From: a phage | NCBI GenBank assembly: GCA_014750165.1 | Contig: GCA_014750165.1_4319.1 | Direction: 5' to 3' (one strand) | DNA: 45,917 bases | In this document: one piece after another, positions 2,341 to 41,206 of the stretch | How the letters are laid out: each line of letters begins with the position of its first letter | Numbering within the stretch: the first letter of the stretch is position 1 | Made by a program: the position numbers and the translations under genes | The notes under the pieces: generated by a model | The model's database searches: none | What the model was told of the DNA's origin: nothing | Seen by the model: only the letters and a program-made list of their open reading frames with translations

Positions 2341-2400
2341 ATAGCACTTTTTGCTAAAGCGTTAATCCAGTCTTCCTGTATAGTTAACTCATCGAAACGA
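2341..2400 (+). promoter_or_regulatory. box/-10/leader cassette (T-spacer variant)
   Basis: ATAGCACTTTTTGCTAAAG (2341-2359), a 22-nt spacer, TATAGT (2379-2384), then CATCGAAACGA (2390-2400). Confidence 0.6.
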
Positions 2401-2417
2401 AATGAGAGACTAAAGAA

Positions 2418-2543
2418 ATGAAAGCAATCATCACAATTATGGCAGTGGCAGCGGCAACAACCCTTTCAATTACTTATGTTAAGTTTTGCATGTCAGTAGC
2501 TGAGAGCTACTCAATCTGGCAATTTGCAACTCATTGGCACTAA
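2418..2543 (+). CDS. 41-aa hydrophobic peptide (moron-like)
   Basis: ATG 2418 follows the cassette leader. Sequence MKAIITIMAVAAATTLSITYVKFCM... Below the ORF-track size cutoff. Sits between the major tail terminator and the chaperone gene. Confidence 0.45.
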   Translation: MKAIITIMAVAAATTLSITYVKFCMSVAESYSIWQFATHWH

Positions 2544-2586
2544 GTGTTAGAATACTGATTCACAAACAATAAGAGGATTAACTAAG

Positions 2587-2901
2587 ATGGCAAAATTCAA
2601 ACTTTCACTAGCAGCGCTTCCTGACTTTAAGCTGCCTGTAAAATTCAAGCTGGCTAACGACCAGGATGTAGAGGTTATCTTTACAGTCAAGCACAAGAAA
2701 ACCTCAGAGCTTCAGGAGTTACTTAATAAAGAAGGCCTAAGCACCAAAGAACTCATTATGGCAATTGCATCTGATTGGGATTTGGAGGAGGAATACAACG
2801 AAGACAACGTTAATGAGTTCTCAGACCTGTTCCCGTCTTCAACCGTTGCTCTTACCACTGCTTACATGCAGGCGCTCGCTGGTCAGAGAGTAAAAAACTA
2901 A
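2587..2901 (+). CDS. tail assembly chaperone (gpG-like)
   Basis: 104 aa, directly upstream of the tape measure, with a slippery heptamer at its 3' end. Confidence 0.8.
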   Translation: MAKFKLSLAALPDFKLPVKFKLANDQDVEVIFTVKHKKTSELQELLNKEGLSTKELIMAIASDWDLEEEYNEDNVNEFSDLFPSSTVALTTAYMQALAGQRVKN

Positions 2902-3221
2902 AACGAGCGGTGTATCTACAGTACCAGTCAGAGCCAACAGATGCCGAACTGGAAGCTATTGGGATGCGCCGCTCCGATTACGAAGATGAAGAGCCTGAAG
3001 TTTTACACTTCGACGAAAACATGATGAAGGCGTGGGACATTTACTGTTCAATGGCTACGCAATGGCGAGTCGGAGCTAACGGAGCTACAGGCCTAGATTA
3101 CAACGTGCTAAATTTCCTCTTTAGAGTGTATAATGTTTCTGAAGAAGAATTGGTACTCAGCGATTTACGCATCCTTGAAGCTAAGGCTCTTGAGATGATG
3201 GATAACCTGAGAAAAAAATAA
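2587..3221 (+). CDS. tail assembly chaperone G-T fusion (via -1 frameshift at 2892-2898)
   Basis: The downstream ORF 2910..3221 has no RBS of its own and lies in the -1 frame of the G-like ORF. This is the conserved lambda G/GT arrangement. Confidence 0.7.
2892..2898 (+). other. -1 programmed frameshift slippery site A_AAA_AAC
   Basis: Zero-frame codons are gtA AAA AAC TAA. A -1 slip reads AAA AAA CTA AAA CGA GCG GTG, which is in frame with ORF 2910..3221. Confidence 0.75.
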
Positions 3222-3242
3222 CCCGCTTCGGCGGGTTTTCTA
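3222..3242 (+). terminator. terminator-like hairpin
   Basis: CCCGC-TTCG-GCGGG followed by TTTTCTATT. Confidence 0.5.
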
Positions 3243-3256
3243 TTATGGAGGCTTAG

Positions 3257-6660: not shown

Positions 6661-7416
6661 ATGTTAAGTCCAAAGTTTGAAAATCAGTTGCAAAGTCTTT
6701 TCCCAGGCGAGATTGTGACTCTAATCCAGGTTGACGGAACCTCCTTTGGCTCTCTCGTTTATTCGTTCCATAATGAGAACATTTCATACACGCCAGAAGA
6801 GATCATGCTTGCCCAAATGAATGGCGAGCCACTGCCAGAGAAAACGATTACATTCCGTGGTGAAGAGTACGGCCCAAGACCTTTCGGCATCTCTGGCATC
6901 AATATGACTTCTGATGGCAAGGCAAACAAAGTTACGCTAACTGTATCAAACGTAGACCAGAGGATTAGCGCCTTGATTCGAACATACAACGGACTTGTTA
7001 AAGCTAAGGTTACCATATGGATTACTACGCGAGATAACATCAATGAAGACGGGAGTATTGCTGATGGAGATTATCGCAAATTCGTTTACTTCATTGAGCG
7101 ACCTAAGCAGGTTGATTACAAAACTGCGTCATTTGAGCTTAGTAGCCCGATGGATATGGATGGCATTTACATACCCGCACGGCTTGTTCAGTCTGTTTGT
7201 TATTGGGCGTCAAGGGGTTGGTATCGTAGCGGTAATGGATGCGACTACGCTGGTAATCGTTATTTTGACAAAGACGACAACCCGGTCAGTGACCCTTCTC
7301 TAGATTTCTGTGCGGGCACTGTTAACAGTTGCAAGATTAGATTCGGCGAGAATAATCAGCTTTCATTTGGTGGATGCGCAGCAGCAAGCCTTCAAGCCAA
7401 AGCGAATCAATCATAG
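6661..7416 (+). CDS. minor tail protein (lambda gpL-like)
   Basis: ATG 6661 follows GGAG. Has LTVSN and a C-terminal Cys cluster (CYW..C..C..C) as in gpL. Its stop TAG is part of the repeat box. Confidence 0.85.
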   Translation: MLSPKFENQLQSLFPGEIVTLIQVDGTSFGSLVYSFHNENISYTPEEIMLAQMNGEPLPEKTITFRGEEYGPRPFGISGINMTSDGKANKVTLTVSNVDQRISALIRTYNGLVKAKVTIWITTRDNINEDGSIADGDYRKFVYFIERPKQVDYKTASFELSSPMDMDGIYIPARLVQSVCYWASRGWYRSGNGCDYAGNRYFDKDDNPVSDPSLDFCAGTVNSCKIRFGENNQLSFGGCAAASLQAKANQS

Positions 7417-7470
7417 CACTTTTTGTTAAGAGGAAGGCGCAGGAATGCGCTATCCTCTAATCTCTTAAAC
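7413..7470 (+). promoter_or_regulatory. degenerate box cassette (T-spacer variant)
   Basis: ATAGCACTTTTTGTTAAG, then a long GAGGA..GCGC/GCGC..TCCTC hairpin and a weak TATCCT hexamer at the 22-nt spacing. Confidence 0.4.
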
Positions 7471-7482
7471 TGGAGATTAAAA

Positions 7483-7968
7483 ATGAACTGGAATGAAATT
7501 TTCGAATACAGAGATGGCAAGATTTATTGGAAAGTTAGCCCTGGCAGGAGGGCTAAGGTTGGTTCGGAAGCTGGATCAAATCAAATAAAAGGGTATAGAT
7601 TTGTGAAATTTCACGGAGTTTTATATATGACACACAGGGTTATTTGGGAGATGCATAACTGTGAAATACCGCATGGAATGGAGGTTGACCATTTAAATCA
7701 CATTAGGGACGATAACAGGATAGAGAATTTAAGAGTTGTTACAAAGTCAATTAATCAGAGGAATGCATCTAAAAGAATTGATAATAAAAGCGGTTTTACA
7801 GGCGTTTCTTGGTATCCCAAATATTCAAAGTGGAATGCTTACGCGACAGTAAATTCCAAGAGGTTTAATCTTGGTTACTTTGAATCAAAGCAAGATGCCT
7901 ATGTGGCTGTTAAAAAATTTAGGTCCATAAATGATTTTCATAAAAACCATGGAGTTGATTTATGTTAA
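7483..7968 (+). CDS. HNH homing endonuclease with AP2-like DNA-binding domain (copy 1)
   Basis: ATG 7483 follows GGAG. Contains HRVIWE..EVDHLNHIRDDNRIENLR (HNH) followed by GVSWYPKYSKWNAY (AP2-like). Inserted between the tail genes L and K. Confidence 0.85.
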   Translation: MNWNEIFEYRDGKIYWKVSPGRRAKVGSEAGSNQIKGYRFVKFHGVLYMTHRVIWEMHNCEIPHGMEVDHLNHIRDDNRIENLRVVTKSINQRNASKRIDNKSGFTGVSWYPKYSKWNAYATVNSKRFNLGYFESKQDAYVAVKKFRSINDFHKNHGVDLC

Positions 7969-12746: not shown

Positions 12747-12772
12747 AGGCCCCTGAAGGGGCCTTTTCTTTT
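12747..12772 (+). terminator. intrinsic terminator at a convergent junction
   Basis: AGGCCCC-TGAA-GGGGCCT followed by TTTTCTTTT. Confidence 0.65.
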
Positions 12773-13733
12773 AGTAGAAGTTTGGAATAAATGGAAGTGC
12801 CATTGATATATTTGTGTCAAAAGGAAACTGAGCGCCTGTCTGAGTTGAGTAGTTACCTATTACAGATCCAGGAACAGCCCTAACGGAGCCACCAGACATA
12901 CAAACTCCCTTGTATCGTAAGTTGTTATACCCTCCGGTAACTCTAGTCGTAGCGCCGCACCTAAGTAGCGGGAAGAAACCACCATTTATTGACTGATATC
13001 CATTGCTTATTTGTATAAATCCACCAAGAACGAATGGTCGTCTAACGCTTGAAAAAACAATCTGACCAGAACTATTTGACATTGTGAGCCCTGGTCCTGC
13101 TGGTGGCGGTTCATTCCTGAATATCACTAACTGAACGTAAGTGCTTGCCGCCACGTCATCTATGCCACCATAGTTTACATCACGGCACCATATTGTACTA
13201 CCATCACTCTCCAGCGACACATTTGGGTTATCCCACTTACCAAATGGTATTCCGCTAACCGGTAGCGATGCTGCCCCGTTAACCTGTATTCCTCCAACCC
13301 ATGCTGCTGACATTAGTCTCGAGTTGCTTGATATGGCAAGGAAATCAGTTGAGTTCTCAACGAGTATGCCTGGACTTGATGAAGATGAAGCCGGTAGTAT
13401 CTCAAAGCAATTACCAGCAAAGTCAATTATTCTACCATTAGCACCATTGAAGTTGCTGAGCGTTATCCTGCCAGTTCCGTCATTTACCTTTTGAAACCCG
13501 TTCATGTAATAAACTTCGGGTATAACATCGTAAGCGTCAACGTGGACTGCCTTCGTTGGTAGGCAGAAAGCCGTAGAACCAGGTGACATTGTCAATCCAA
13601 AATCCCACGATATTGCTGGTGTTGAAAGTCCATTGGTATTTATTGATCCAGTCACAGCAGGTGCCCTTAATCCTGCCGTGATTTCCATCGCTGGTCTTCC
13701 GTCATTGAGGTCAATCAATATACCCTGCGGCAT
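12771..13733 (-). CDS. hypothetical Gly/Ser/Asn-rich protein, translationally coupled to the cor-like gene
   Basis: ATG 13733 overlaps the upstream stop (TAATG), and the AAGGAG RBS lies inside the cor-like 3' end. 320 aa with no motif I can name. Confidence 0.6.
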   Translation of the reverse strand: MPQGILIDLNDGRPAMEITAGLRAPAVTGSINTNGLSTPAISWDFGLTMSPGSTAFCLPTKAVHVDAYDVIPEVYYMNGFQKVNDGTGRITLSNFNGANGRIIDFAGNCFEILPASSSSSPGILVENSTDFLAISSNSRLMSAAWVGGIQVNGAASLPVSGIPFGKWDNPNVSLESDGSTIWCRDVNYGGIDDVAASTYVQLVIFRNEPPPAGPGLTMSNSSGQIVFSSVRRPFVLGGFIQISNGYQSINGGFFPLLRCGATTRVTGGYNNLRYKGVCMSGGSVRAVPGSVIGNYSTQTGAQFPFDTNISMALPFIPNFY

Positions 13734-13978: not shown

Positions 13979-13997
13979 TTTGTATTCCTTATTAAGT

Positions 13998-14064
13998 GCG
14001 TTTCGTTTCGATGGAGTAATAGTATCGCATCCTTGCGATCAGTGTTTAGCAATTAGTGCTATTC
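13998..14064 (-). promoter_or_regulatory. box/-10/leader cassette
   Basis: Minus strand reads AATAGCACTAATTGCTAAAC, 22 nt (ATCGCA..TGCGAT hairpin), TACTAT, then CCATCGAAACGAAACGC. Confidence 0.6.
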
Positions 14065-14744: not shown

Positions 14745-14810
14745 CTCGTTAGTTTAAGTGCGGCGATTATACCGCACAGAATTTATTGTTCTTTAGCAAT
14801 TCGTGCTATT
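14745..14810 (-). promoter_or_regulatory. box/-10/leader cassette
   Basis: Minus strand reads AATAGCACGAATTGCTAAAG, 22 nt (GTGCGG..CCGCAC hairpin), then TATAAT (14771..14766). Confidence 0.6.
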
Positions 14811-15453: not shown

Positions 15454-15519
15454 TTTAATCTCTCTATATGTTTTGACTTCGAAAATTTCGTATTCAAGCA
15501 GCACCATTGCCGCCATGAG

Positions 15520-15568
15520 CCTAAATATACCCAAAGATACCCAGTTGTCTTTAGCAAATCGTGCTATT
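15520..15568 (-). promoter_or_regulatory. box/-10 cassette
   Basis: Minus strand reads AATAGCACGATTTGCTAAAG, 22 nt, then TATATT (15529..15524). Confidence 0.55.
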
Positions 15569-17412: not shown

Positions 17413-17479
17413 ATAGCACGAATTGCCAAAACAAAGCGGGATGACTTAGGTATAGTTATCCCATCAACAACGAACGAGG
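17413..17479 (+). promoter_or_regulatory. box/-10/leader cassette
   Basis: ATAGCACGAATTGCCAAA, 22 nt (GGGAT..ATCCC hairpin), TATAGT (17451-17456), then CCATCAACAACGAACGAGG. Confidence 0.6.
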
Positions 17480-21261: not shown

Positions 21262-21292
21262 ATAGCACGAATTGCTAAGTTGGATTGTAGCA
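21262..21292 (-). promoter_or_regulatory. extended -10 promoter with an inverted orphan box at the predicted transcript start
   Basis: Minus strand reads TGcTACAAT (-10 at 21289..21284). The box (21262-21279) is in the opposite orientation to the gene and starts about 7 nt downstream of the hexamer. Confidence 0.45.
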
Positions 21293-22793: not shown

Positions 22794-22840
22794 ATAGCAT
22801 TTTTTGTTAAAAGTCATTCAGATTTGATGGTAGTATTGTA
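22794..22840 (+). promoter_or_regulatory. box cassette (T-spacer variant) upstream of the helicase
   Basis: ATAGCATTTTTTGTTAAAA, a 21-nt spacer, then TAGTAT (22831-22836). Confidence 0.45.
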
Positions 22841-22863
22841 CTCAATTAAACGCTACAAGACAA
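22835..22863 (-). promoter_or_regulatory. sigma70-like promoter for the HTH gene
   Basis: Minus strand reads TTGTCT (22863..22858), 17 nt, TACAAT (22840..22835). It overlaps the + strand TAGTAT hexamer. Confidence 0.5.
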
Positions 22864-24877: not shown

Positions 24878-25293
24878 ACATAACAGATAAAGAATATTAC
24901 ATTGAGTTTTACCCAGGTTCAGTTAAGTCATGCCCGAAAGAGGATGACGAACAAATCTTTTGCTCTGATTGGGTTAAGTATAACTATCCAGAGATGGTAT
25001 TTTTCCACTGTGTGAATGAGGGTAAGAAAACCATTGGTCAAGCAAGAAAAGACCAGGCAAAGGGTTTGCTCAAGGGCGTATCAGACTGCATGTTTTTGAT
25101 ACCTGAATCCGTGCGAGGAAGGTATCCATTTGGCGCAATAGAGCTAAAGAGAGCTGGAAAAACACAGGCTAGCCCAGTCAGTAACGAGCAGAAGTCATTC
25201 CTGAAAAGTGTAAGGGAATCAGGAGGTTTCTCCGCTGTGGCTTACGGTCGCGAGGGTTTTCTGGCAGCATTCAAAGAAATGATTTCTAAATAG
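24874..25293 (+). CDS. VRR-NUC domain nuclease
   Basis: GTGA overlap with the helicase. GVSDCMF..IELKR matches the D..E-x-K core. The stop TAG lies inside the box. Confidence 0.7.
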   Translation: MNITDKEYYIEFYPGSVKSCPKEDDEQIFCSDWVKYNYPEMVFFHCVNEGKKTIGQARKDQAKGLLKGVSDCMFLIPESVRGRYPFGAIELKRAGKTQASPVSNEQKSFLKSVRESGGFSAVAYGREGFLAAFKEMISK

Positions 25294-25354
25294 CACGAAT
25301 TGCTAAACTCGATTTTAAAAGATGTTGTATAGTTACTTCATAGAAACGAAACAC
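25289..25354 (+). promoter_or_regulatory. box/-10/leader cassette
   Basis: AATAGCACGAATTGCTAAA, 22 nt, TATAGT (25328-25333), then TCATAGAAACGAAAC. Confidence 0.6.
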
Positions 25355-25580: not shown

Positions 25581-25645
25581 ATAGCACGAATTGCTAAAGA
25601 CTAATCGGTGAGGTGGTGTATTATCACCACATCGAAACGAAACGC
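25581..25645 (+). promoter_or_regulatory. box/-10/leader cassette
   Basis: ATAGCACGAATTGCTAAA, 22 nt, TATTAT (25619-25624) in the loop of GTGGTG..CACCAC, then ACATCGAAACGAAACGC. Confidence 0.6.
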
Positions 25646-26783: not shown

Positions 26784-27920
26784 ATGGCAACTGCAAAAAT
26801 CACTAACGAAGAGCTGCGTGAAGAGCTTGCTAATGGCATGACAAACAAGGCAATCGCAGAGAAATACGGAATGAACATTCGCAACGTTGAATTGCGTCGT
26901 AGTAAATTGGCAAAGAGTGGAGAATTGCACGGAAACCCAGGTATCAAGAAGTTAGTTCCTGACGGTTATATGGTTAAGGGAACCTCCACGATGATTGATG
27001 CGGATGGTAACGAGAAGCTGCGCTGGGTTAAAACCTCTGTAGACAATGAGCGACTTGAGGTTTTAATGGAGCAAGCTCGAGAAGCATTTTGCTCTGATTT
27101 GCCAAAGGCTATTCCATCTGAATCACCGAATGTTAACTTTGATGATAACACGCTTGCGATGTATCCAGTTTTTGATTTACACATTGGGGCGATGGCTCAC
27201 AAACATGAGTGTGGCGAAAACTATGATACAGCAACAGCAGAGAAAGTAATGAATGGGTTCTTTGACTACGCTGTTGATAAGGCTCCAAACTCTAAGAATG
27301 CTGTATTGGTATTGGGTGGTGATTTCCTGCATTACGACTCTCTGGAGGCTAAAACCCCGGCATCAGGTCATATCTTAGATTCTGACAGTCGTTACGCCAA
27401 GATTGTTTATGTTGCAATCCGGTCAGTGCGTCGTGCCATTTCTCGAATGATGGAAAAGCACCAAGTTATTGAAATTAAAGTAATAAGTGGCAATCACGAC
27501 GAGGCAGGAATGGTTTGGCTCCGCGCTGCACTTGCTGCATTTTATGAAGATGAGCCTCGCGTAAATGTTGATGTTAGCCCAGCCGCAATGATGATGACCA
27601 GCTTTGGAACGACGCTTATTGGATACACTCACGGGCACCAAATGCGGAAAGCCGATACTCGACTAACTGTTATGGCAACTGATTTTCGTAAGTTATTTGG
27701 CCAAAGTGAGTATGTTTACACACATAGTGGCCACTGGCATTCGCAGAAGATTACAGAAACAAACTTGGGAATTGATGAGGTTCATGGGCAGCTTGGAAGC
27801 CCTGACGCGTACTCCGCAAATGGCGGTTGGCGTTCTCAACGTCAAGCGGCAGTCATTGTCTACCATAAAGAATTCGGTGAAGTTGGCCGATTCATTTGTC
27901 GCCCTAAAATGTTTGGCTAA
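26784..27920 (+). CDS. metallophosphoesterase with N-terminal HTH
   Basis: DLHIG, GGDFLH, GNHD and GHWH match calcineurin-like motifs. The N-terminal NKAIAEKYGMNIRNVELRR is HTH-like. Confidence 0.7.
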   Translation: MATAKITNEELREELANGMTNKAIAEKYGMNIRNVELRRSKLAKSGELHGNPGIKKLVPDGYMVKGTSTMIDADGNEKLRWVKTSVDNERLEVLMEQAREAFCSDLPKAIPSESPNVNFDDNTLAMYPVFDLHIGAMAHKHECGENYDTATAEKVMNGFFDYAVDKAPNSKNAVLVLGGDFLHYDSLEAKTPASGHILDSDSRYAKIVYVAIRSVRRAISRMMEKHQVIEIKVISGNHDEAGMVWLRAALAAFYEDEPRVNVDVSPAAMMMTSFGTTLIGYTHGHQMRKADTRLTVMATDFRKLFGQSEYVYTHSGHWHSQKITETNLGIDEVHGQLGSPDAYSANGGWRSQRQAAVIVYHKEFGEVGRFICRPKMFG

Positions 27921-27985
27921 TAGCGCTTTTTGTTAAAACGATACCCGCGAAAGCGGGTATTATTGTTTTATCGAAACGGCAGGGG
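27919..27985 (+). promoter_or_regulatory. box/-10/leader cassette (T-spacer variant)
   Basis: AATAGCGCTTTTTGTTAAAA, 22 nt (ATACCCGC-GAAA-GCGGGTAT hairpin), TATTAT (27958-27963), then TATCGAAACGG. Confidence 0.55.
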
Positions 27986-28002: not shown

Positions 28003-28485
28003 ATGATTTTTTTATACTATAAGGATGGAAAGGTTTTCTGGAGAGATCCGCACTGCACGAGATTGAAGCCAGGTGATGAGGCTGGTAGTAGGCACCATAG
28101 GGGTTATTGGTATATTCGTAGATATGACAAAACAATGTCAAGGCACCGAATCGTATGGGAGATGCACAACGGAACAATACCAGACGGTATGGAGATAGAT
28201 CATATAAATCACGTGCCTGGTGATGACAGAATTGAAAACCTAAGAATGGTCACAAGAAGGCAAAACAATCAAAACAAAAAATTAAATGAAAGAAATACAA
28301 GCGGACACGTCGGGGTTAGCTGGAACAAGAAGACAAACAAATGGAGAGCAATGATAGGCATAAGGGGAGAGGACGGAAAGAGGAAAACTTTATACGTTTA
28401 TTATGGTGATTCTTTCGATGATGCGGTATCAGCAAGAAAGAAAGCAGAGGCTGAGCACTCGTTTCATGAAAATCACGGTAAATAG
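28003..28485 (+). CDS. HNH homing endonuclease with AP2-like domain (copy 2)
   Basis: HRIVWE..EIDHINHVPGDDRIENLR followed by GVSWNKKTNKWRA. The RBS-backed ATG at 27993 is out of frame by one across a T7 run (28007-28013). Confidence 0.8.
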   Translation: MIFLYYKDGKVFWRDPHCTRLKPGDEAGSRHHRGYWYIRRYDKTMSRHRIVWEMHNGTIPDGMEIDHINHVPGDDRIENLRMVTRRQNNQNKKLNERNTSGHVGVSWNKKTNKWRAMIGIRGEDGKRKTLYVYYGDSFDDAVSARKKAEAEHSFHENHGK

Positions 28486-28544
28486 CACTTTTTGCCTAAC
28501 TCATGCCGTAGAAATGCGGCATAATCACCAAATCGAAACGAGAT
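28480..28544 (+). promoter_or_regulatory. box/-10/leader cassette (T-spacer variant)
   Basis: AAATAGCACTTTTTGCCTAA, 22 nt (ATGCCG..CGGCAT hairpin), CATAAT (28520-28525), then AAATCGAAACGAGA. Confidence 0.55.
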
Positions 28545-29031: not shown

Positions 29032-29586
29032 ATGACTAAATTATTTATCCTTAATGGCCCAGCTGGAGTTGGCAAGGACACTATAGCCGATATCATGGTT
29101 GAGACTGGTGTCGCCAAAGAAAAGGTATCATTCAAGTCACCAATGTTTAACGTTGTAAAAGGAATGCTATCAAGCGATGAATTTGATGGATTCATCAAGA
29201 ATTACGACAATAGAGACTATAAGGAATCACCTCATGGATTTCTTAGCGGTATGACAGTTCGTGAATTTATGATTTGGATTAGCGAGTCTGTAATGAAGCC
29301 AGTCTTTGGTGATGATGTTTTCGGTAAAAGGCTAGCACAGTCACTTGGTGATGGTTGCTACATTTGCGCTGACGGTGGGTTTGCTAGCGAGATTAAGCCA
29401 CTGATCGACACTGGTGTTGAGGTAACGTTAATCAGGTTGCATAGGGAAGGGTACACATTTTATGGCGATAGTCGCTCATACATTCACGGTGTGTGTGCAA
29501 GAGAGATTGATGTTCATGTTGTTGATGGTGATATTAATGGAACATCAGCATTGGTAAGGCACGTAATAAATAGCACGAATTGCTAA
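29032..29586 (+). CDS. P-loop (d)NMP kinase-like protein
   Basis: NGPAGVGKDT P-loop. ATG 29032 lies 7 nt after GGAG (track start 29026). The C-terminus is box-encoded NSTNC. Confidence 0.65.
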   Translation: MTKLFILNGPAGVGKDTIADIMVETGVAKEKVSFKSPMFNVVKGMLSSDEFDGFIKNYDNRDYKESPHGFLSGMTVREFMIWISESVMKPVFGDDVFGKRLAQSLGDGCYICADGGFASEIKPLIDTGVEVTLIRLHREGYTFYGDSRSYIHGVCAREIDVHVVDGDINGTSALVRHVINSTNC

Positions 29587-29632
29587 AGATAATATTAAAA
29601 ACTGGGTTATCATTAACACATCGAAACGAGAT
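29569..29632 (+). promoter_or_regulatory. box/-10/leader cassette
   Basis: AATAGCACGAATTGCTAAA, 22 nt, TATCAT (29608-29613), then ACATCGAAACGAGA. Confidence 0.6.
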
Positions 29633-31029: not shown

Positions 31030-31046
31030 TGGAGGCTATATTTTTA
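31014..31046. terminator. bidirectional intrinsic terminator
   Basis: A6-AGCCTCC-TAAT-GGAGGCT-ATATTTTT between convergent genes. Confidence 0.75.
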
Positions 31047-31379
31047 GCTAAATAACTCGTCGTCAGTCATTGTTCCTATATTCATCATCTCTTTTATGTA
31101 ATTGCTCTGATACCCGCCAAGCGCCTCGAAGTTGAAATCAAATGGCCTTTTCAAACTCCCCTTGCTAACAAACTCACCACACTTACCATCAATGTATCCA
31201 GCAGTTAACATCTTTGCGCAAAACTCCTTTGAAGCCGCGCTGCAAAACTCTCTATGAGATAACCCCGCCGCCTTGCTGAATCTCTGGGAGTCCTTATGTT
31301 GGTAGATGAATCGCGCCAAATGCTGACGCGTGAAAAAGCTATAAGATTCGCAAAAACGATACAAATCCAAAATGAACAC
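31044..31379 (-). CDS. hypothetical protein
   Basis: GTG 31379 follows GGGGTGA; 111 aa. Confidence 0.55.
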   Translation of the reverse strand: MFILDLYRFCESYSFFTRQHLARFIYQHKDSQRFSKAAGLSHREFCSAASKEFCAKMLTAGYIDGKCGEFVSKGSLKRPFDFNFEALGGYQSNYIKEMMNIGTMTDDELFS

Positions 31380-31382
31380 TTA

Positions 31383-32966
31383 TCACCCCAGCAGTCGTGG
31401 ATTAATGTAAACTTTATCACCAATCAGGCAAGTATAGTTTTTCTCATCAAGCATTGGCAGTAAGTGATCTTTAATCTTCGTCATTACTCCAGCCTGAGCC
31501 TCGAATGGCTTAACCTTGCGAGCAGCTTCATACAATGAACGAATACCAACTACGCCCTTCCCGTTTTTCCCTTGCTTGATCAGGATATCAATCAGCTTAT
31601 TCATCTCGGCATTGTCGCCAGCGTGACCAGCTGCGCTGGCAGATGACAGGTAAGTCTTGCTTAGTTCCTGGAACATGATTACAGCTTCTTGCATGGTATC
31701 AAGTTCAATCTCTCTGGATTTCTGCGGACTCCCACCGTTAGGGTTGAACCAGTTACGAACAGCATGAAGAACGGCTGCAATCCTGATGGCCTGTTTATCG
31801 AACTTGCCCAGGGCACCACGTAACATTGTGTGTGAATACTTCCCGCCATCAGCAAGGTGAGGTTCCATTTCTTGGCGCGCTCGGTTGAGGTACTTCATCG
31901 CTGAGTTGCTTACTGTCAGCTTAACATCTTGCTCATTCATTATCTCATGAACTAAGCGGAAGTAATCAGCCTTTAGTCCACCATCAATTGGCTCGTAAGT
32001 TGAGTCTCCATTCTCATCAACAAATACACGCTCGCCCAGGAATGATTTTTCACGTACAAGCAGAAAACGCTCAGATACACCGATACCACGCGCACCGGCA
32101 TTCATGATTGCATTGATTGTTTCGTCTTGCGCAATTACAGAGATGCAACCCAAAGCAACGAAGCTCATGTTGTTCTCTGCGTTAGCACGCGCAATAGATA
32201 CGTTACCCGCATCCCATGCTTTAAGCACTAGTTCGCTGTTCGTTTTCTTTGAGCCATCACCATAGGTCATGCCAAGCAGTGAGTTCACGCTCGTTGCTTC
32301 ATCCGAGATTACAGCAAAGTTACCCTGACGGTTGTTTATTCGCGCAAGACCTTCCGGCGTGGTATCGGACACGGGGAAAACGATATCGCATAGCTTCTCG
32401 AGCTTCTCCTCTAACTCCTCTTTCTCCTCAAAAAGTGAGGCCATCTCTGATGGTGACTTTTCCTGTTTCATCTCTTTTGATAATGCAGACAGCTTTGCCA
32501 TAATCTTTTTACGCTCACGCTTTCGCACTTCATTCAGCCGCTCAGTCTCAGCAATCATTGGAGCAATTGAAAGTGAGTTAATTGCTGATTTACCTGTCGA
32601 TGGCGGCTGGCTTGTCACGACATAAAGCGAAGTTGGCTGCTGAGTTCCGTGATACTCAACAGTGAATCGACCAAGCATTGCAGCGGAAATACACCCCAGG
32701 AAGTGCATATATGCGGACGACTCAGGAAACTGAACAGAACGAGCAATATTGGCTGACAGCTTACCAACAACATCAATATCATTGCCTAGTGAGATTACAG
32801 GGTACTTGTCATTAGCCGCATCAATCTCTACAGGTGCCTTCCAGAATGATTGAGACTGGCGATAGCCATTGGCATTAATAGCCACGCGCAGGGGTGGGAG
32901 GTTGTCTGCGGCTGCAATTGCCATAACCTGTTCAACAGATAGCTTATCTTCGTTGAAATCAAACAT
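31383..32966 (-). CDS. DUF3987/YfjI-like putative replication ATPase
   Basis: 527 aa with a P-loop-like SQPPSTGKSA. The overall layout is recalled from DUF3987 primase-associated proteins and has not been checked against a profile. Confidence 0.5.
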   Translation of the reverse strand: MFDFNEDKLSVEQVMAIAAADNLPPLRVAINANGYRQSQSFWKAPVEIDAANDKYPVISLGNDIDVVGKLSANIARSVQFPESSAYMHFLGCISAAMLGRFTVEYHGTQQPTSLYVVTSQPPSTGKSAINSLSIAPMIAETERLNEVRKRERKKIMAKLSALSKEMKQEKSPSEMASLFEEKEELEEKLEKLCDIVFPVSDTTPEGLARINNRQGNFAVISDEATSVNSLLGMTYGDGSKKTNSELVLKAWDAGNVSIARANAENNMSFVALGCISVIAQDETINAIMNAGARGIGVSERFLLVREKSFLGERVFVDENGDSTYEPIDGGLKADYFRLVHEIMNEQDVKLTVSNSAMKYLNRARQEMEPHLADGGKYSHTMLRGALGKFDKQAIRIAAVLHAVRNWFNPNGGSPQKSREIELDTMQEAVIMFQELSKTYLSSASAAGHAGDNAEMNKLIDILIKQGKNGKGVVGIRSLYEAARKVKPFEAQAGVMTKIKDHLLPMLDEKNYTCLIGDKVYINPRLLG

Positions 32967-32969: not shown

Positions 32970-33040
32970 TTCTCTCCGTATTGTTTCTGAGCGGCCATTA
33001 TATCAACGACCGCTTATAATTCATTATCAATTTGTGCTAT
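32970..33040 (-). promoter_or_regulatory. box/-10 cassette (variant box)
   Basis: Minus strand reads ATAGCACAAATTGATAA, 22 nt, TATAAT (33002..32997), then CTCAGAAACAATACGGAGAG. Confidence 0.55.
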
Positions 33041-33424
33041 TTACAGGTATTGCGCCTCAAAAAAGTAAGTCTGGCAAAGCGTGTAAAAACCAACGTCCTC
33101 ACTGCGGTAAAGCTGCCAGGCGTTTCCATCCTCGTCATAAATGTATCCGGCATTTTGTCCAAGCCCAGCATGCATAGATACCTGGTAACGCTTTCCTTCT
33201 TTAAAGTCTTTTTTAACTCCTGACTTGTGGTTAACATTTGTGCAATAGAGAGTCTTTGTCTTAATGTATCTACCTAGCTCAGTAAGGTTCTGCCACTTGC
33301 CATTAACCTTGATTTGCTTTACACCATCCTTATCTCTAGCTTTATACAATACGTTATTGTTGCTAATCCAGTTCTTTGTGGTTTTGTTCCATCCGGCAGT
33401 TATCTTGCACTGATTGATAGTCAT
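33041..33424 (-). CDS. hypothetical protein
   Basis: ATG 33424 follows GAGAG (track start is GTG 33448); 127 aa. Confidence 0.55.
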   Translation of the reverse strand: MTINQCKITAGWNKTTKNWISNNNVLYKARDKDGVKQIKVNGKWQNLTELGRYIKTKTLYCTNVNHKSGVKKDFKEGKRYQVSMHAGLGQNAGYIYDEDGNAWQLYRSEDVGFYTLCQTYFFEAQYL

Positions 33425-33589: not shown

Positions 33590-33655
33590 CATCTCCCGTT
33601 TCGATGGAAAGATAATACCGCATCCTTGCGATTTCGTTTTAGCAATTCGTGCTGT
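33590..33655 (-). promoter_or_regulatory. box/-10/leader cassette
   Basis: Minus strand reads ACAGCACGAATTGCTAAAA, 22 nt (TCGCA..TGCG hairpin), TATTAT (33617..33612), then CCATCGAAACGGGAG. Confidence 0.6.
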
Positions 33656-34043: not shown

Positions 34044-34535
34044 CTACCTCATTCCGCTGTTCTTGTGGTATTTCGCATTAACCTCAGCAACAATCCTCGC
34101 CTCGCAAGCACAGATAAAGTCTATGAATGTTCCTAAACATACAATTTTCCCATCTATGCTAATTCTTGCCGACCACTTACCTCTAACATCCATGTTCACA
34201 CCAGTTACCCCTGGCTTTCTTCTTACATACCTTTTGAGATTCTTATGATTTTCCATGTGGCTAACTAGCCTTAAGTTTTCAATCCTATTATCAGACCTAT
34301 CTCCATTAATGTGGTCGATCTGCATTCCTTTTGGTATATCTCCGTTGTGAATAATCCAGACCGCTCGATGGCAATAAATTAGCTTATTCTTAACCCTAAA
34401 TGCCTTGTATCCATGGCTATGCATGCAGCCAGCCTCGTCACCAACTTTTACTTGGGATGAGTTATACTTTCTGTAAAGTTTCCCATCCTTATACTCTACG
34501 GCGTTTACAATATCCTCAACTAGAATGGCACACAT
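34044..34535 (-). CDS. HNH homing endonuclease with AP2-like domain (copy 3)
   Basis: HRAVWI..QIDHINGDRSDNRIENLR followed by GVNMDVRGKWSAR. Confidence 0.8.
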   Translation of the reverse strand: MCAILVEDIVNAVEYKDGKLYRKYNSSQVKVGDEAGCMHSHGYKAFRVKNKLIYCHRAVWIIHNGDIPKGMQIDHINGDRSDNRIENLRLVSHMENHKNLKRYVRRKPGVTGVNMDVRGKWSARISIDGKIVCLGTFIDFICACEARIVAEVNAKYHKNSGMR

Positions 34536-34699: not shown

Positions 34700-34768
34700 T
34701 ATCTCCTCGTTTTGATGAGTTAACTATATCCTCCATGACCCCCAATGTCTTTGGCAAAAAGTGCTATT
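34700..34768 (-). promoter_or_regulatory. box/-10/leader cassette (T-spacer variant)
   Basis: Minus strand reads AATAGCACTTTTTGCCAAAG, 23 nt, TATAGT (34728..34723), then CTCATCAAAACGAGGAG. Confidence 0.55.
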
Positions 34769-35030: not shown

Positions 35031-35299
35031 AATTACGCAATGGTTACACTATAATATCTATATATAACAACCATTTAGTATAATTATTATTATTATATAT
35101 ATTACTATGTATATCATGTAACCACGCATCCGGCGGGGGTCGATAGTTTTTCTATGAAAATGACATTTTCTATATATATAAGGATAGGCATATACCCTCC
35201 CCGATTTCCGCGGAAATCCATACACAGGCAAATTACATACGCTATAGCTGGGCTGAGGTAGCAAAAAGCGTAACCGGGGCCAATATAAACACGAAATAA
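35031..35299 (+). repeat. control-region repeat, copy B
   Basis: Collinear with 15666..15938. The core is 35031-35122 and the second block is 35233-35299. Confidence 0.8.
35258..35299 (+). pseudogene. remnant of the 5' end of the ORF-15902 homologue
   Basis: GTA GCA AAA AGC GTA ACC GGG GCC AAT ATA AAC ACG AAA TAA aligns codon for codon with ATG CCA AAA AAC GTA ACT AAT GGC AAT ACC TAC ACG GAA at 15902. Confidence 0.5.
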
Positions 35300-35302
35300 C
35301 AC

Positions 35303-35330
35303 TTGATAACGTGTATATGTGTGTTATTAT
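35303..35330 (+). promoter_or_regulatory. sigma70-like promoter for the rightward small-gene operon
   Basis: TTGATA (35303-35308), 16 nt, TATTAT (35325-35330), then a CATCTTAACGAAGGG leader. Confidence 0.5.
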
Positions 35331-35372
35331 GGATTCATCTTAACGAAGGGCAACCAATCAGGAGTAATGAAT

Positions 35373-35988: not shown

Positions 35989-36215
35989 TGCTTATAAAAT
36001 GCGTGTATGCAAGGCAAGCCAATCACCACAACCTTTCAGTTGTAAATGGTGGGATATACTCGGCAAAGCCAATCACTCGCTTTAATGGCTCATACTACAT
36101 CAAGGTTGATGGCAATGAGTACATGGTGAAGACGATAGGTGAAGCTCTTATGATAAAAAGCCTTGGCGTCATAATGGCTAAATTCGAAATCTTTCACAAT
36201 AGCACTAATTGCTAA
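35988..36215 (+). CDS. hypothetical protein ending in NSTNC
   Basis: 75-aa ORF whose C-terminus is encoded by the box. Confidence 0.55.
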   Translation: MLIKCVYARQANHHNLSVVNGGIYSAKPITRFNGSYYIKVDGNEYMVKTIGEALMIKSLGVIMAKFEIFHNSTNC

Positions 36216-36263
36216 ACCCGCTCCGGCAGGTTTTGTTATAGTTGGTTCACACCAAACGAGAGG
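36198..36263 (+). promoter_or_regulatory. box/-10/leader cassette
   Basis: AATAGCACTAATTGCTAAA, 22 nt, TATAGT (36237-36242), then CACACCAAACGAGAGG. Confidence 0.6.
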
Positions 36264-36701: not shown

Positions 36702-36835
36702 TTTACATCCATACTTACTACACTGGGAAGTTTAATAGCGTTAAGCATTCCAGTGTTCACGATAGCTACGAGAGCGCAAAGGCCCAATGGTTGGTTCTTG
36801 GTGGTGATATCAATTCATATAGAGTCGCTGAATAG
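36698..36835 (+). CDS. hypothetical 45-aa protein
   Basis: ATGA overlap at its start, and its stop TAG lies inside the box. Below the ORF-track cutoff. Confidence 0.45.
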   Translation: MIYIHTYYTGKFNSVKHSSVHDSYESAKAQWLVLGGDINSYRVAE

Positions 36836-36897
36836 CACGAATTGCTAAAACAGTATTGGGGTAATTTGGTATAGTTACCCCATCGAAACGAACGAGG
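36831..36897 (+). promoter_or_regulatory. box/-10/leader cassette
   Basis: AATAGCACGAATTGCTAAAA, 22 nt, TATAGT (36870-36875) in the loop of GGGGTAA..TTACCCC, then CATCGAAACGAACGAGG. Confidence 0.6.
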
Positions 36898-37778: not shown

Positions 37779-37970
37779 ATGTGGATTAAGTGCAGTGTTC
37801 GGATGCCTGAGCATTTCAGTTATGTTATCATTACAGATGGCGAGCATGTCGAGGTTAAATGGTGGAATGGTGACAAATGGGATTGTTGGGCGGATTGTTG
37901 GGTGGGTAACTCGAATATCTGTAGCGACGATGTTACCCACTGGATGCCGCTACCAGTAGCCCCTAAATAG
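37779..37970 (+). CDS. hypothetical Trp-rich protein
   Basis: 63-aa ORF after AGGAGAGGA. The stop TAG lies inside the box. Confidence 0.55.
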   Translation: MWIKCSVRMPEHFSYVIITDGEHVEVKWWNGDKWDCWADCWVGNSNICSDDVTHWMPLPVAPK

Positions 37971-38032
37971 CAAGAATTGCTAAATGGAGTCGCCACGGAT
38001 GGCATACAATAACCACATCAACACAACGAGAG
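37965..38032 (+). promoter_or_regulatory. box/-10/leader cassette
   Basis: AAATAGCAAGAATTGCTAAA, 22 nt (GCCA-CGGA-TGGC hairpin), TACAAT (38005-38010), then CACATCAACACAACGAGAG. Confidence 0.55.
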
Positions 38033-38040
38033 ATTTAGAA

Positions 38041-38280
38041 ATGTTCGGACTAAATGAAGCGATGTTCAATGCTGTAAAGCGACAGGCTAAAAAGCTCAAC
38101 GATAAGTATGAGTCACTAAGCAAGCTGGACCGCAAGAGTGATAAACTAGTTGCCGGTATCATCACTGAGATTTGGCAGCCTGTTTCCACAGTGATTAGCA
38201 GGGATCGATTTGTGTGGGTAGCTGGTTACTTGCGAGGTCGAGTTGGTCATGATGAGAATGGGAACAGCCTTTATGAGTAA
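38041..38280 (+). CDS. hypothetical protein
   Basis: ATG 38041 follows the leader. The track start 37984 lies inside the cassette. Confidence 0.55.
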   Translation: MFGLNEAMFNAVKRQAKKLNDKYESLSKLDRKSDKLVAGIITEIWQPVSTVISRDRFVWVAGYLRGRVGHDENGNSLYE

Positions 38281-38658: not shown

Positions 38659-38736
38659 GCTCTGCTAGCTCAATTGGATAGCAGCAACGACCTTCTAAGT
38701 CGTAGGTTACTGGTTCGAGGCCAGTGCAGAGCGCCA
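38659..38736 (+). tRNA. tRNA-Arg (anticodon UCU), CCA encoded
   Basis: Acceptor GCTCTGC/GCAGAGC, anticodon stem ACGAC/GTCGT with loop CTTCTAA, T arm ACTGG-TTCGAGG-CCAGT, discriminator G followed by CCA. Confidence 0.9.
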
Positions 38737-38751: not shown

Positions 38752-38934
38752 ATGTGGGATGTGAAGTTGTCCATTCGCTTAATGGGCCGCTCATGCAAGA
38801 GTTGCAGTCAAGATTACATCGCGTCAGTTGCCGCAATCAGCGCTGAGGATGCGGTAGCGAAAGTAAAGGAGATGTCGGGCGCTGACCCTGACACTCACAA
38901 ATTCCTGGTAGCTTACGTTCGTGAGCGAAAGTAA
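38752..38934 (+). CDS. hypothetical protein
   Basis: ATG 38752 lies 7 nt after AAGGGAG. The track start 38674 lies inside the tRNA. Confidence 0.55.
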   Translation: MWDVKLSIRLMGRSCKSCSQDYIASVAAISAEDAVAKVKEMSGADPDTHKFLVAYVRERK

Positions 38935-38978: not shown

Positions 38979-39003
38979 ATCCCTCTCTTGAGGGATTTTT
39001 TTC
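38979..39003 (+). terminator. intrinsic terminator
   Basis: ATCCCTC-TCTT-GAGGGAT followed by T7. Confidence 0.75.
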
Positions 39004-39013
39004 GCCTGTAATA

Positions 39014-39022
39014 TGGTATAAT
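39014..39022 (+). promoter_or_regulatory. extended -10 promoter upstream of the terminase genes
   Basis: TGgTATAAT (TATAAT at 39017-39022). No good -35. Confidence 0.5.
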
Positions 39023-39046
39023 CTGACCTCAACAAAGGGGGATTAA

Positions 39047-39553
39047 ATGAGCAAAGCAGCATTAAAGATGGGTGAGGGAAACTTCAAGGCGCTCTACAAC
39101 AAGAAGTATGGCGACATTGCCATGGTGGCAATCAACCGCAAGTACACGCCAGAAGAGGTTTTAGATTTCGCCGTTCGATATTTCTCCTGGGCGGAGAGTG
39201 AGGCAATCAAAGCAATTGAGACAGCAGCATTTCAGGGCGTGGTTAGCGAGAGCTTAGTGCACAAGCCGAGAGTGTTCACATTAACCGGGCTGGCGCTATT
39301 TATGGGTGTTAACATCAATAGATTCGCTCGCTGGCGCACTGAAGCTGGATACTCCGATGTGATGGAATTCATTGATAACGTAATCTACGAGCAGAAATAT
39401 CAGCTTGGCGTTGCAGGTATTATCAACTCTACCATCGTTGGTAAAGAGCTTGGAATTGATAAGCCTCAGGAAATCACCATTAGCAACAACTCTACAGCTA
39501 ACGACGTTGATAGCATGAAGGAAGCTCTGGAATCTGTGATTAGCAAGTTATAA
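39047..39553 (+). CDS. terminase small subunit
   Basis: 168 aa directly upstream of the large subunit. The N-terminal half is HTH-like (LTGLALFMGVNINRFARW). Confidence 0.75.
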   Translation: MSKAALKMGEGNFKALYNKKYGDIAMVAINRKYTPEEVLDFAVRYFSWAESEAIKAIETAAFQGVVSESLVHKPRVFTLTGLALFMGVNINRFARWRTEAGYSDVMEFIDNVIYEQKYQLGVAGIINSTIVGKELGIDKPQEITISNNSTANDVDSMKEALESVISKL

Positions 39554-39571
39554 CAATAAGAGGGTATAACA

Positions 39572-41143
39572 ATGAGTGATTTAATCGTGTGGGATGAACT
39601 TACATACGCAGAAAAGATGGCTATCAAGGCCATCTCTGAGCATAGTTTCGAGGGGTTCTTGCGGTGTTTCTTCCAGATAACGCAGGGTGAGAGATTTAAA
39701 ATGAATTGGCACGCGAAGTACCTTTGCCGCGTCATAGATGAGATTCTTGATGGTAAGAGAAAGGACACCATCATAAACATAGCTCCGGGATCTGCCAAAA
39801 CCGAACTGTTTAGCATCCACTTCCCTGTATATAGCATGATTAAGATTAAGAAGGTTAGAAATCTTAGTTTGTCTTTCTCTGATTCATTGGTGAAGCGCAA
39901 CTCAAAGCGTGTTCGTGACCTGATAAAGTCAAAGGAGTTCCAGGAGCTTTGGCCCTGCAAGTTTGGAACATGCAGGGATGACGAAATTCAAGTGCTGGAT
40001 GAGAATGGTAAAGTTAGGTTTGAGTCTATATCTAAGGCGATGGCGGGGCAGGTGACGGGAAGCAGGGGAGGCTACATGACTGACGATTATAGTGGTTGCA
40101 TAATGCTGGATGACCCACTAAAACCTGATGACGCGCTAAGTAATGTAAGAAGAGAGGCTGTCAACATGCTTCTCAAGAACACAATTCGTTCACGTCGAGC
40201 TAGCTCAGTAAAGGGAAAGGAAACGCCAATACTTGCCGTGCAGCAAAGACTTCATGTCCTGGACACTAGCCACTTCATGGAGTCAGGGCAGATGGGCATC
40301 AAGTTCGACGTAGTGAAAGTTCCAGCCATAGTCACGGAGGATTACGCCGACACGCTCCCTGATTGGATTAAGCAGCAATTTATTGATGATGTTCTTTCGT
40401 CACCATTTGTTGAGAGGGATGGGGTTAAGTATTACAGCTACTTCCCAGCAAAGGAATCAATAGAAGACTTGATGGCAATGCGGGATGCTGACCCTTATAC
40501 ATTCCTAAGTCAGTACGCTCAAGAACCAGTAGCACTTGGCGGCAATCTGATTAACGTGGATTGGTTCCAGCGCCTTAGCGATACATTCAGACCTCCCGCT
40601 AAGTATGATTATCGATTCATCACATGCGATACTGCGATGACCACAAAGAGTTATAGTGACTTCTCTGTACTTCAGTTGTGGGGATATAAGGATGCTAAGA
40701 TTTACCTGATAGACCAGCGCAGAGGTAAATTTGAAGCACCAGAGTTGGAGGCTGAACTACTGGACTTCGAGAAGAAATCAAGGGCAACCAGTCAGTCAGA
40801 TGGCATCCTCCGAAAGATCATCATCGAGAAGAAAGCGTCTGGTATCGGCCTGATTCAATCAGCTGGCAGGGTTATGCGAACACCGATAGAGTCATACGTA
40901 CCGGATAATGACAAGCTAACCAGGGTGATGAGTGCACTACCACAGATTAAGGCTGGTAACGTAGTTCTTCCAGAGTCATCGCCGTGGCTAAACGGATTGC
41001 TCACTGAGGTTGCGGCTTTTACGGCAGATGACTCGCATAAGCACGACGACCAAATTGACTGTCTAACAATGGCGGTAAACCTTGTACTTAACATCGCGGA
41101 TGATCCTAAGGCGAGACTAATGCGCATAGCAGGAATTAAATAG
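39572..41143 (+). CDS. terminase large subunit
   Basis: 523 aa. ATPase motifs (NIAPGSAKTE, IMLDDP) and a C-terminal nuclease region (..HDDQIDC). The stop TAG lies inside the box. Confidence 0.9.
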   Translation: MSDLIVWDELTYAEKMAIKAISEHSFEGFLRCFFQITQGERFKMNWHAKYLCRVIDEILDGKRKDTIINIAPGSAKTELFSIHFPVYSMIKIKKVRNLSLSFSDSLVKRNSKRVRDLIKSKEFQELWPCKFGTCRDDEIQVLDENGKVRFESISKAMAGQVTGSRGGYMTDDYSGCIMLDDPLKPDDALSNVRREAVNMLLKNTIRSRRASSVKGKETPILAVQQRLHVLDTSHFMESGQMGIKFDVVKVPAIVTEDYADTLPDWIKQQFIDDVLSSPFVERDGVKYYSYFPAKESIEDLMAMRDADPYTFLSQYAQEPVALGGNLINVDWFQRLSDTFRPPAKYDYRFITCDTAMTTKSYSDFSVLQLWGYKDAKIYLIDQRRGKFEAPELEAELLDFEKKSRATSQSDGILRKIIIEKKASGIGLIQSAGRVMRTPIESYVPDNDKLTRVMSALPQIKAGNVVLPESSPWLNGLLTEVAAFTADDSHKHDDQIDCLTMAVNLVLNIADDPKARLMRIAGIK

Positions 41144-41206
41144 CACGAATTGCTAAACTAAGTCGCCACGGATGGCGTATAGTTACTTCATCGAAACGAG
41201 AGGAGA
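41140..41206 (+). promoter_or_regulatory. box/-10/leader cassette
   Basis: ATAGCACGAATTGCTAAA, 22 nt (CGCCA-CGGA-TGGCG hairpin), TATAGT (41178-41183), then TCATCGAAACGAGAGGAG. Confidence 0.6.

Follow-up and report, generated by a model that had tools for sequence, protein, structure and literature searches.

A 2024 re-annotation of phage TLS described a 21-nt "direct repeat," aaATAGCACnnnTTGnTAAAA, at 21 places in that genome, 18 of them intergenic; the repeats run in the direction of the genes, and start codons follow after about 76 nt. The TLS repeats form three groups according to their central triplet (AAA, TTT, or GAA); their authors saw similar repeats in T1, Rtp, and Rogue1, suggested that they might be stoperators, enhancer-binding sites, or UP elements, and found three ordinary sigma-70 promoters in TLS. 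Here, we consider the same repeat, which we call the box, in another phage genome, the 45,917-nt contig GCA_014750165.1_4319.1 of assembly GCA_014750165.1 (the whole of that stretch is "the window" below), together with the unit of about 70 bp in which the box usually sits: box, spacer, -10 hexamer, and leader. In other words, what is this cassette for, and what reads it?

A second known system bears on these questions. The promoter plus stem-loop cassettes (PeSLs) of T4-type phages run from the stop codon of the upstream gene through a sigma-70 promoter, with a stem-loop between the -35 and -10 or over the -10, to a ribosome-binding site and a start codon. They occur in many copies per genome and serve as joints for modular exchange, and their promoter activity, terminator activity, and mini-circles have been shown by experiment.

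The window belongs to a T1-like siphovirus (Drexlerviridae, Braunvirinae, Rtp-like) whose closest relatives are PsgS01F, Msk, and the vB_EcoS-12210I group, with about 86% identity over 64-70% of a searched 22-kb stretch. For Rtp itself, Wietzorrek et al., in the genome paper of 2006, reportedly listed ten conserved inverted repeats, placed ahead of genes, that might be bound by Rtp52. The Rtp GenBank record lists rtp52 as a putative transcriptional regulator with a helix-turn-helix, and the MSK, SU57, AHP24, and KanT1 papers do not discuss the element.

An earlier reading of the window by a model (the original prediction) had picked out the cassette and was not aware of an equivalent for T1-like phages. 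Such a description exists, as the TLS re-annotation reports aaATAGCACnnnTTGnTAAAA. The box shares with the repeat of TLS, T1, Rtp, and Rogue1 the sequence (consensus ATAGCAC-nnn-TTGnTAAA(A)), the number of copies (about 20), the orientation, the spacing from start codons (median 74 nt in the window, about 76 nt there), and the virus family, down to a T1-like host genome with an Rtp52/gp23-type regulator. Nothing essential differs; the box of the window is the same element in another Rtp-like genome, and since it has been published for TLS and its relatives, it is already known rather than new. What we add is a fixed 22-nt distance to a -10 hexamer, a missing -35, a conserved start region, stem-loops in the spacer, and a -10 shared with the gene of a candidate regulator. 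The TLS text that we read mentions neither that distance, nor the missing -35, nor a conserved leader, nor spacer stem-loops, nor a -10 shared with the regulator gene.

The Box and Its Neighbors

The box, a near-palindrome of 18 bp, is far too frequent to be accidental. The pattern ATAGCACnnnTTGCTAAA occurs 20 times in the window against 0.18 expected; ATAGCACNNNTTGCTAAA with at most two mismatches picks out exactly 20 sites, nine of them exact (again 0.18 expected from shuffles); and the strict inverted repeat TAGCA-N5-TGCTA is present at 12 sites, where 0.07 would be expected. All 14 plus-strand and all six minus-strand boxes of the original prediction were recovered, with the shuffle control far below, although several of its coordinates had to be moved by 1-2 nt (plus-strand starts now at 25290, 27920, 28482, 29570, 36199, 36832, and 37967; minus-strand ends at 14062, 14809, 15567, and 34767). 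The central triplet is GAA in ten boxes, TTT in six, TAA in two, and GAT and AAA in one each. From center to center, the half-sites TAGCA and TGCTA are 10 bp apart, which is as expected for a helix-turn-helix dimer.

The placement of the boxes is as regular as their sequence. Nineteen of the 20 face a downstream gene, and at 15 of the 20, the upstream gene ends inside the box or directly at it, using the TAG or TAA of the box itself or a TAA immediately before it. The earlier claim that a cassette precedes nearly every nonstructural gene or gene pair went too far, in that, by a rough count on the gene map, the 19 gene-oriented cassettes serve about 50 nonstructural genes, in units of one to about six.

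The expected conservation among relatives is there as well. Rtp has 20 boxes, T1 about 22, and KP36 about 17 (at most three mismatches, evident chance matches left out), whereas Msk, A110b, 12397V, and A14a have 14-18 each at the stricter limit of two mismatches, and the Vibrio phage Vc1 carries the box with its sequence unchanged. Viral contigs with multiple copies of the box measure about 28-53 kb, most of them 45-53 kb, which is the size of a T1-like genome.

A -10 Hexamer at a Fixed Distance and No -35

With all copies aligned on the box and hexamers scored at fixed distances, 17 of the 20 copies have their best -10-like hexamer 22 nt beyond TTGCTA. The original prediction had put this at 16 of 19, and the difference is copy 7413 with its weak TATCCT; its tally of hexamers was correct (TATAGT six times at 22 nt, TATTAT three times, TATAAT twice, and the rest singles). 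Two of the three exceptions are off by a single nucleotide (21 nt in copy 22794 and 23 nt in copy 34767), and copy 21262 has no hexamer at 21-23 nt at all. A score of 4 bits or more is reached by 74% of the hexamers at the 22-nt spacing and by 1.4% genome-wide. Rtp, T1, KP36, Msk, A110b, 12397V, A14a, and Vc1 have the same downstream geometry, and in seven other genomes, 86 of 121 copies have the 22-nt spacing exactly and 105 of 121 have 21-23 nt.

Downstream of the hexamer comes the leader CATCGAAACGA, found 11 times with at most one mismatch against 0.71 expected. Ten of these 11 are within cassettes; that is, the leader is essentially never present without a box. Its C starts 5 nt past the hexamer, and its A is the seventh base. 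We place the transcription start, from the position of the -10, at this A; numbered in this way, the hexamer would occupy -12 to -7 and the box about -50 to -33, with its dyad at about -42. A conservation profile of 141 distinct cassettes from eight genomes contains the box and one preceding A, a G at -14, the hexamer as TAtnnT (strongest at the A of -11 and the T of -7), CA at -1/+1, and AAAC. The regular, promoter-type unit that had been proposed is supported and far from chance.

What the cassettes lack is a -35. At spacings of 16-18 nt from the -10, the best -35 score is that of the background (-0.21 vs. -0.37, with 4% strong matches in both). TTGCTA itself was considered for the part and rejected: a 22-nt spacer exceeds the usual length by 5 bp, which is about half a helical turn, and the region 16-18 nt away holds no hexamer. 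Canonical -35/-10 pairs are below the shuffle level across the whole window (19 vs. 26.6, 28 vs. 33.4, and 22 vs. 28.3), a scarcity that agrees with the finding of only three in TLS, and the few intergenic ones are the promoter of the regulator gene (22863-22835, minus strand) and others in the divergent region 35265-35372. An extended -10 (TGn) is present in four cassettes: 22794, 33040, 36199, and 36832.

The spacer is also structured. Over 136 distinct cassettes, the 35-nt stretch between the box and +3 has a mean folding z of -2.2 relative to its own shuffles, compared with -0.23 for random genome windows (Mann-Whitney p = 5e-16), and 57% of these cassettes have z < -1.5. There are two layouts. 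In one, a G+C stem-loop ends right at the hexamer, as in CCCGCGAAAGCGGG followed by TATTAT or CGCAAGGATGCG followed by gTATTAT; in the other, the hexamer is in the loop between the arms, as in GGGGTAA-tttggtatag-TTACCCC and GTGGTG-tattat-CACCAC or, in T1 and KP36, AAGGCC...GGCCTT. The sequences of the arms differ between cassettes and yet remain complementary. We rejected the idea that these hairpins are intrinsic terminators in general, as a simple scan for terminators in the sense orientation accepted only two of 20 (27940-27961 and 33617-33632), and an Rfam search of the cassettes returned no known RNA family. The T1 record annotates at least one cassette-spacer stem-loop as a rho-independent terminator (e.g., 41978-42000) and does not annotate cassettes as promoters.

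A Candidate Reader of the Box

Which protein would bind the box? We infer that the most likely reader is the product of the gene at 22308-22781, the homologue of Rtp52 and T1 gp23, to which we refer as the regulator. Homologues occur in 826 phage records. Sequence searches gave weak matches to Cro-type helix-turn-helix proteins, and a sequence search of solved structures gave none. An AlphaFold model built with 40 homologues is confident (pLDDT 87) except at residues 1-30, and its best structural match is a dimeric helix-turn-helix fold of the Cro/cI type; C.AhdI and lambda cI bound to sigma region 4 are also among its matches. The palindromic sites of Cro/cI-type proteins and of the C proteins of restriction-modification systems are occupied by dimers, and for two of these proteins, activation takes place from about -42.

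The regulator gene has a layout of its own. In all nine genomes, it has a -35/-10 pair on its own strand, and the -10 overlaps the -10 of the divergent helicase cassette; the box is then 20-23 nt downstream of the regulator's -10, within its 5' untranslated region (5' UTR). The pair is clearly canonical in eight of these genomes and weak in Vc1 (examples are TTGTCT-17-TACAAT in the window, TTGAAT-17-TATAAT in T1, TTGTCA-16-TATAAT in KP36, and TTTAGT-16-TATAAT in A14a).

Pfam and PHROGs scans covered seven conserved small or uncharacterized proteins of the window. Five other universally conserved small proteins, considered as alternative readers (31044-31379, 33041-33424, 26252-26446, 37999-38280, and 38752-38934), had no informative family matches and are less conserved than the regulator. 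Within the regulator, the most conserved segment, residues 1-45 with IDKRxxNGNNGTxRxxDKKxRKRP, is predicted to be disordered (pLDDT about 50). In the C-terminal part, at least 90% of the homologues in the alignment keep the cysteines C102 and C119.

How the Cassettes Might Work

The cassettes are very probably promoters. We also lean, with a good deal less assurance, toward a fuller account in which they are sigma-70 promoters of the -10 type without a -35, activated by a dimeric phage protein at the box, the regulator being that protein. On this account, the cassette would be the standard promoter module of the Drexlerviridae. Its core would be a -10 of the host sigma-70 type, and a dimer bound at about -42 would stand in for the missing -35 contact and recruit RNA polymerase, much as lambda cI recruits polymerase from OR2 at PRM and as C proteins do at their own promoters. 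The geometry is that of a class II site: a dyad 42 bp upstream of the predicted +1, a -10 present, and a -35 absent. With regard to a class II activator, the Cro/cI-like fold and the conserved autoregulatory layout argue for the regulator, and its variable recognition helix, set beside an invariant box, argues against it.

The regulator would be made first from its ordinary promoter and would then activate the cassette promoters; with a -35/-10 pair of its own, it can be made first by the host polymerase alone. Given the shared -10 and the box in its 5' UTR, the bound protein would switch polymerase toward the helicase and off its own gene, so that the regulator would lower its own expression. 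The leader would supply each transcript with a short, unstructured, A/C-rich 5' UTR ending in a ribosome-binding site of the GAGG type, and the spacer stem-loops probably weaken or cut off transcription arriving from the preceding gene, the stop codon of which is usually in the box. The cassettes may also be recombination joints between relatives, as some 20 near-identical units of 60-70 bp flanking unrelated genes could well be.

Several points weigh against this account. The box is the same from coliphages to Vc1, the regulator of which is about 50% identical, and almost no position of the predicted recognition helix (residues 66-75) is constant, so that the usual base-contacting ones vary too; what is invariant in the protein is the N-terminal arm, IDKRxxNGNNGTxRxxDKKxR, and helix 1. 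Covariation of regulator and box was sought in Vc1, the most divergent member, and none was seen. An unchanged box read by a variable helix counts against any simple model in which the helix reads the box: either the N-terminal arm of the regulator reads DNA, or something else does. The four cassettes with a TGn might fire without an activator; promoters that depend on the regulator would, plausibly, make the phage rely on early expression of one mid-genome gene; and the orphan box at 21262, with no -10, fits the part of a roadblock or repressor site better than that of an activator site. The literature that we searched holds no measured start sites or protein binding for any T1-like phage.

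Might the box, then, be a negative operator, at which the regulator or another phage protein shuts promoters or blocks elongation in the manner of the mycobacteriophage L5 stoperators, with the promoters running on their -10 or extended -10? Stoperators are among the suggestions made for TLS. The regulator-gene box, downstream of a canonical promoter, is in a repressing position; the orphan box between a terminator and a gene start and the four extended -10 cassettes would also be at home in such a scheme. We think it unlikely all the same, because repression has no need of a fixed 22-nt distance upstream of the -10, which is typical of factors that touch polymerase, because the box is clear of both the -10 and the start site, and because most cassettes, having neither a -35 nor a TGn, would be very weak promoters with nothing to repress. 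L5 stoperators are asymmetric sites inside the transcribed regions of a temperate phage, whereas the boxes are near-palindromes of virulent phages, found upstream of a -10; a roadblock-like placement is seen only for the box at the regulator gene and for the orphan, and we rejected membership in the L5 class. A reader supplied by the host could be RNA polymerase, touching TTGCTA with sigma-70 region 4 or the box with its alpha C-terminal domains as at an UP element, or it could be a global regulator, Lrp for instance. Such a reader would explain how the box stays constant across phages of Escherichia, Klebsiella, and Vibrio while the regulator falls to about 50% identity with a different recognition helix. 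TTGCTA agrees with TTGACA at four of six positions, the TAGCA/TGCTA arms fit the arms of the Escherichia coli Lrp consensus yAGhAwATTwTdCTr at 10 of 10, and UP elements were mentioned by the TLS authors. However, bacterial genomes (596 Gb) contain scattered single box matches at about the level of chance and no regulon-like clusters. Across the 22-nt spacer, sigma region 4 would also fall 5 bp, or about half a helical turn, short of TTGCTA. UP elements are A/T tracts at -40 to -60; the position fits, but the best-conserved bases of the box include G and C, and with its AGCAC/TGC composition, we rejected this assignment. As for Lrp, the center of its consensus matches at only one to three of five positions, a single 5-base arm match is expected by chance among many motifs, and T1-like phages grow well in rich medium, in which there is little of the protein. 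A sigma-54 promoter (TGGCAC-N5-TTGC, GG and GC exactly 12 bp apart) was rejected too, as TAGCAC-N3-TTGC has AG in place of GG and is 2 bp too short. All in all, a host reader strikes us as improbable.

Finally, the cassette could be mainly a mobile or recombinogenic unit like the PeSLs of T4, one that moves genes, HNH endonuclease genes included, and for which regulation is secondary. Homology breakpoints do gather at cassettes: 13-14 of 32-36 in three relatives and 7 of 30 in Rtp are within 30 nt of one, where about two would be expected at random, and 15 of 20 cassette junctions are breakpoints compared with 20 of 54 other junctions (p = 0.004). In the cassette at Rtp 40395, the upstream flank is that of window cassette 27920, whereas box, spacer, and -10 are those of 28482 and the leader diverges, by which the HNH gene and the PNK/dNMP-kinase block of the window look like insertions bounded by cassette sequence. 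The PNK gene is in a different genome region in T1, Rtp, and Vc1 than in the window and KP36, it comes directly after a cassette in T1, Rtp, and the window, and two of the three HNH genes of the window likewise directly follow one. The original prediction proposed to see whether gene content breaks at the boxes, and it does so more often than at random positions or at gene junctions at large; measured against other spacers of at least 40 nt, however, the excess (14 of 19 vs. 8 of 16) is not significant (p = 0.14), and the breaks may simply fall between genes. Moreover, box, spacing, and leader are strictly conserved across subfamilies with about 50% protein identity, which argues for a molecular function, since recombination needs only similarity. 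We doubt that mobility is the main purpose. We give a similarly small chance to a mixed picture, in which the box is read by the invariant, predicted-disordered arm of the regulator or by a conserved host component in place of an ordinary helix-turn-helix and in which the cassettes, many with the -10 in the loop of a compensating stem, are a promoter class of their own and a recombination joint of the family.

The Cassettes One by One

The positions of the cassettes and of the regulator gene are collected in Table 1.

Table 1. Cassettes, orphan box, and regulator gene of the window (positions as in the contig; distances are from TTGCTA to the hexamer)
Feature	Position	Strand	Particulars
Cassette	2341..2402	+	Box ATAGCACTTTTTGCTAAA, 22 nt, TATAGT, CATCGAAACGA; after terminator 2313-2332; before a small gene and the tape-measure chaperone genes
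Cassette	7413..7474	+	Hexamer weak (TATCCT), leader degenerate; HNH gene 7483-7968 follows; preceding tail gene stops at the TAG of the box
Cassette	14001..14062	-	TACTAT, CATCGAAACGA; upstream of cor-like lipoprotein gene 13733-13978
Cassette	14748..14809	-	TATAAT within stem GTGCGG/CCGCAC; upstream of C5-methyltransferase-like open reading frame (ORF)
Cassette	15506..15567	-	TATATT, atypical leader; heads minus-strand block 12771-15557
Cassette	17413..17474	+	TATAGT in loop of GGGATGAC/GTTATCCC; between recE-like and erf-like genes
Orphan box	21262..21279	+	No -10 at 21-23 nt, no gene downstream in its orientation; between primase terminator and tail-fiber gene start
Candidate box-binding regulator, 157 aa	22308..22781	-	Rtp52 95% identity, T1 gp23 homologue; Cro/cI-type helix-turn-helix core
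Cassette of helicase gene	22794..22855	+	21 nt, TAGTAT; box within 5' UTR of divergent regulator gene
Sigma-70-type promoter of regulator gene	22835..22863	-	TTGTCT-17-TACAAT; -10 overlaps -10 of helicase cassette
Cassette	25290..25351	+	TATAGT, CATAGAAACGA; upstream of 68-aa gene 25371-25577, which is absent from four compared relatives
Cassette	25581..25642	+	TATTAT between arms GTGGTG/CACCAC
Cassette	27920..27981	+	Spacer hairpin CCCGCGAAAGCGGG ends at TATTAT, then T-rich run (terminator-like); upstream of HNH gene
Cassette	28482..28543	+	CATAAT; upstream of PNK and dNMP-kinase genes; box, spacer, and -10 equal those of Rtp 40395 cassette bar 2 mismatches
Cassette	29570..29631	+	TATCAT, CATCGAAACGA; upstream of 29655 gene and lysis genes
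Cassette	32979..33040	-	TGA-TATAAT, extended -10; upstream of DUF3987 ATPase gene 31383-32966
Cassette	33594..33655	-	Hairpin CGCAAGGATGCG, then TATTAT
Cassette	34706..34767	-	23 nt, TATAGT, CATCAAAACGA
Cassette	36199..36260	+	TGT-TATAGT; in small-gene block
Cassette	36832..36893	+	TATAGT in loop of GGGGTAA/TTACCCC; CATCGAAACGA
Cassette	37967..38028	+	Hairpin GCCACGGATGGC, TACAAT
Cassette	41140..41201	+	TATAGT, CATCGAAACGA; box TAG is the large terminase stop; before gene 41214-41603 and portal/head genes

The orphan box (21262-21279) occupies the same site in Rtp (33762) and T1 (34902), a position kept across subfamilies; in all three, it ends in G (CTAAG) and points away from the nearby genes. 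The divergent region 35265-35372, which has no box, contains TTGATA-16-TATTAT with a TG on the plus strand (35303-35330) and minus-strand matches at 35353-35326 and 35309-35282, and these may be activator-independent immediate-early promoters.

The three HNH genes (7483-7968, 28003-28485, and 34044-34535) are paralogous, and each lies in a stretch for which some relatives give no DNA alignment, as free-standing homing-type genes would lead one to expect; distant paralogues (44-47% identity) are found elsewhere in Rtp. The one after cassette 27920 begins, at 27993-28012, with MNWHDFF as its paralogues do and then meets a stop, the remainder being in another frame from the ATG at 28003. The frame changes within seven consecutive T, through either a homopolymer sequencing error or a real frameshift. 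In the C5-cytosine-methyltransferase-like ORF at 14046-14745 (minus strand), the conserved N-terminal motif IVIWSLFDGSG lies upstream of the first in-frame ATG, GTG, or TTG, and a good ribosome-binding site, GAGGA, is 7 nt before an ATA codon; either the start codon is noncanonical or the gene is damaged. A single tRNA-Arg (anticodon TCT) is at 38659-38736, as annotated in related phages.

What the Cassette Means and How It Compares

T1-like phages are common contaminants of laboratories and industry as well as candidates for phage therapy, and yet, their transcription program is essentially unmapped, and published annotations give them almost no ordinary promoters. If the cassettes are the true promoters and one small phage protein does switch them on, it would be the master control of infection and a target for blocking or engineering these phages, and the cassette would be a compact, portable expression unit. 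The element itself was already in the literature; the value of the present work is a sharper, directly testable model and not a discovery.

How does the cassette compare with systems that are better understood? The likeness to PeSLs seen by the original prediction goes further than it could tell, in that it holds for the intergenic unit of about 70 bp, the stem-loops, the upstream stops, the ribosome-binding site and start codon, and the many copies, and it fails for the promoter. PeSLs have a consensus -35/-10 with an A/T-rich upstream region and involve no phage factor; the cassettes lack the -35 and have, in its stead, a near-palindromic box at about -42. PeSLs belong to a different virus family. 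Lacking a consensus -35/-10 promoter and found in another family, the cassettes are not PeSLs, and they appear to behave like PeSLs as recombination joints.

In its proposed mechanism, the cassette resembles the sites of lambda cI at PRM and of the C proteins, with which the cassettes and their candidate regulator share a palindromic site centered at about -42, a poor or absent -35, a matching fold, and (predicted here) self-repression from a differently placed site. Those proteins, however, govern one or two switch promoters, whereas about 20 promoters of a virulent phage carry the site in the window, and Cro, cI, and the C proteins lack what the regulator has at its ends, namely, a long N-terminal arm that is invariant and, at the C terminus, an extension in which two cysteines are conserved. 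The same logic—sigma-70, a good -10, no -35, and a phage activator site at a fixed distance upstream by which a whole class of promoters is defined—operates at the middle and late promoters of Mu (Mor and C) and T4 (MotA). There, MotA acts together with AsiA from a box at about -30, Mor and C recognize different sequences at about -43.5, and the proteins are unrelated to the regulator proposed here.

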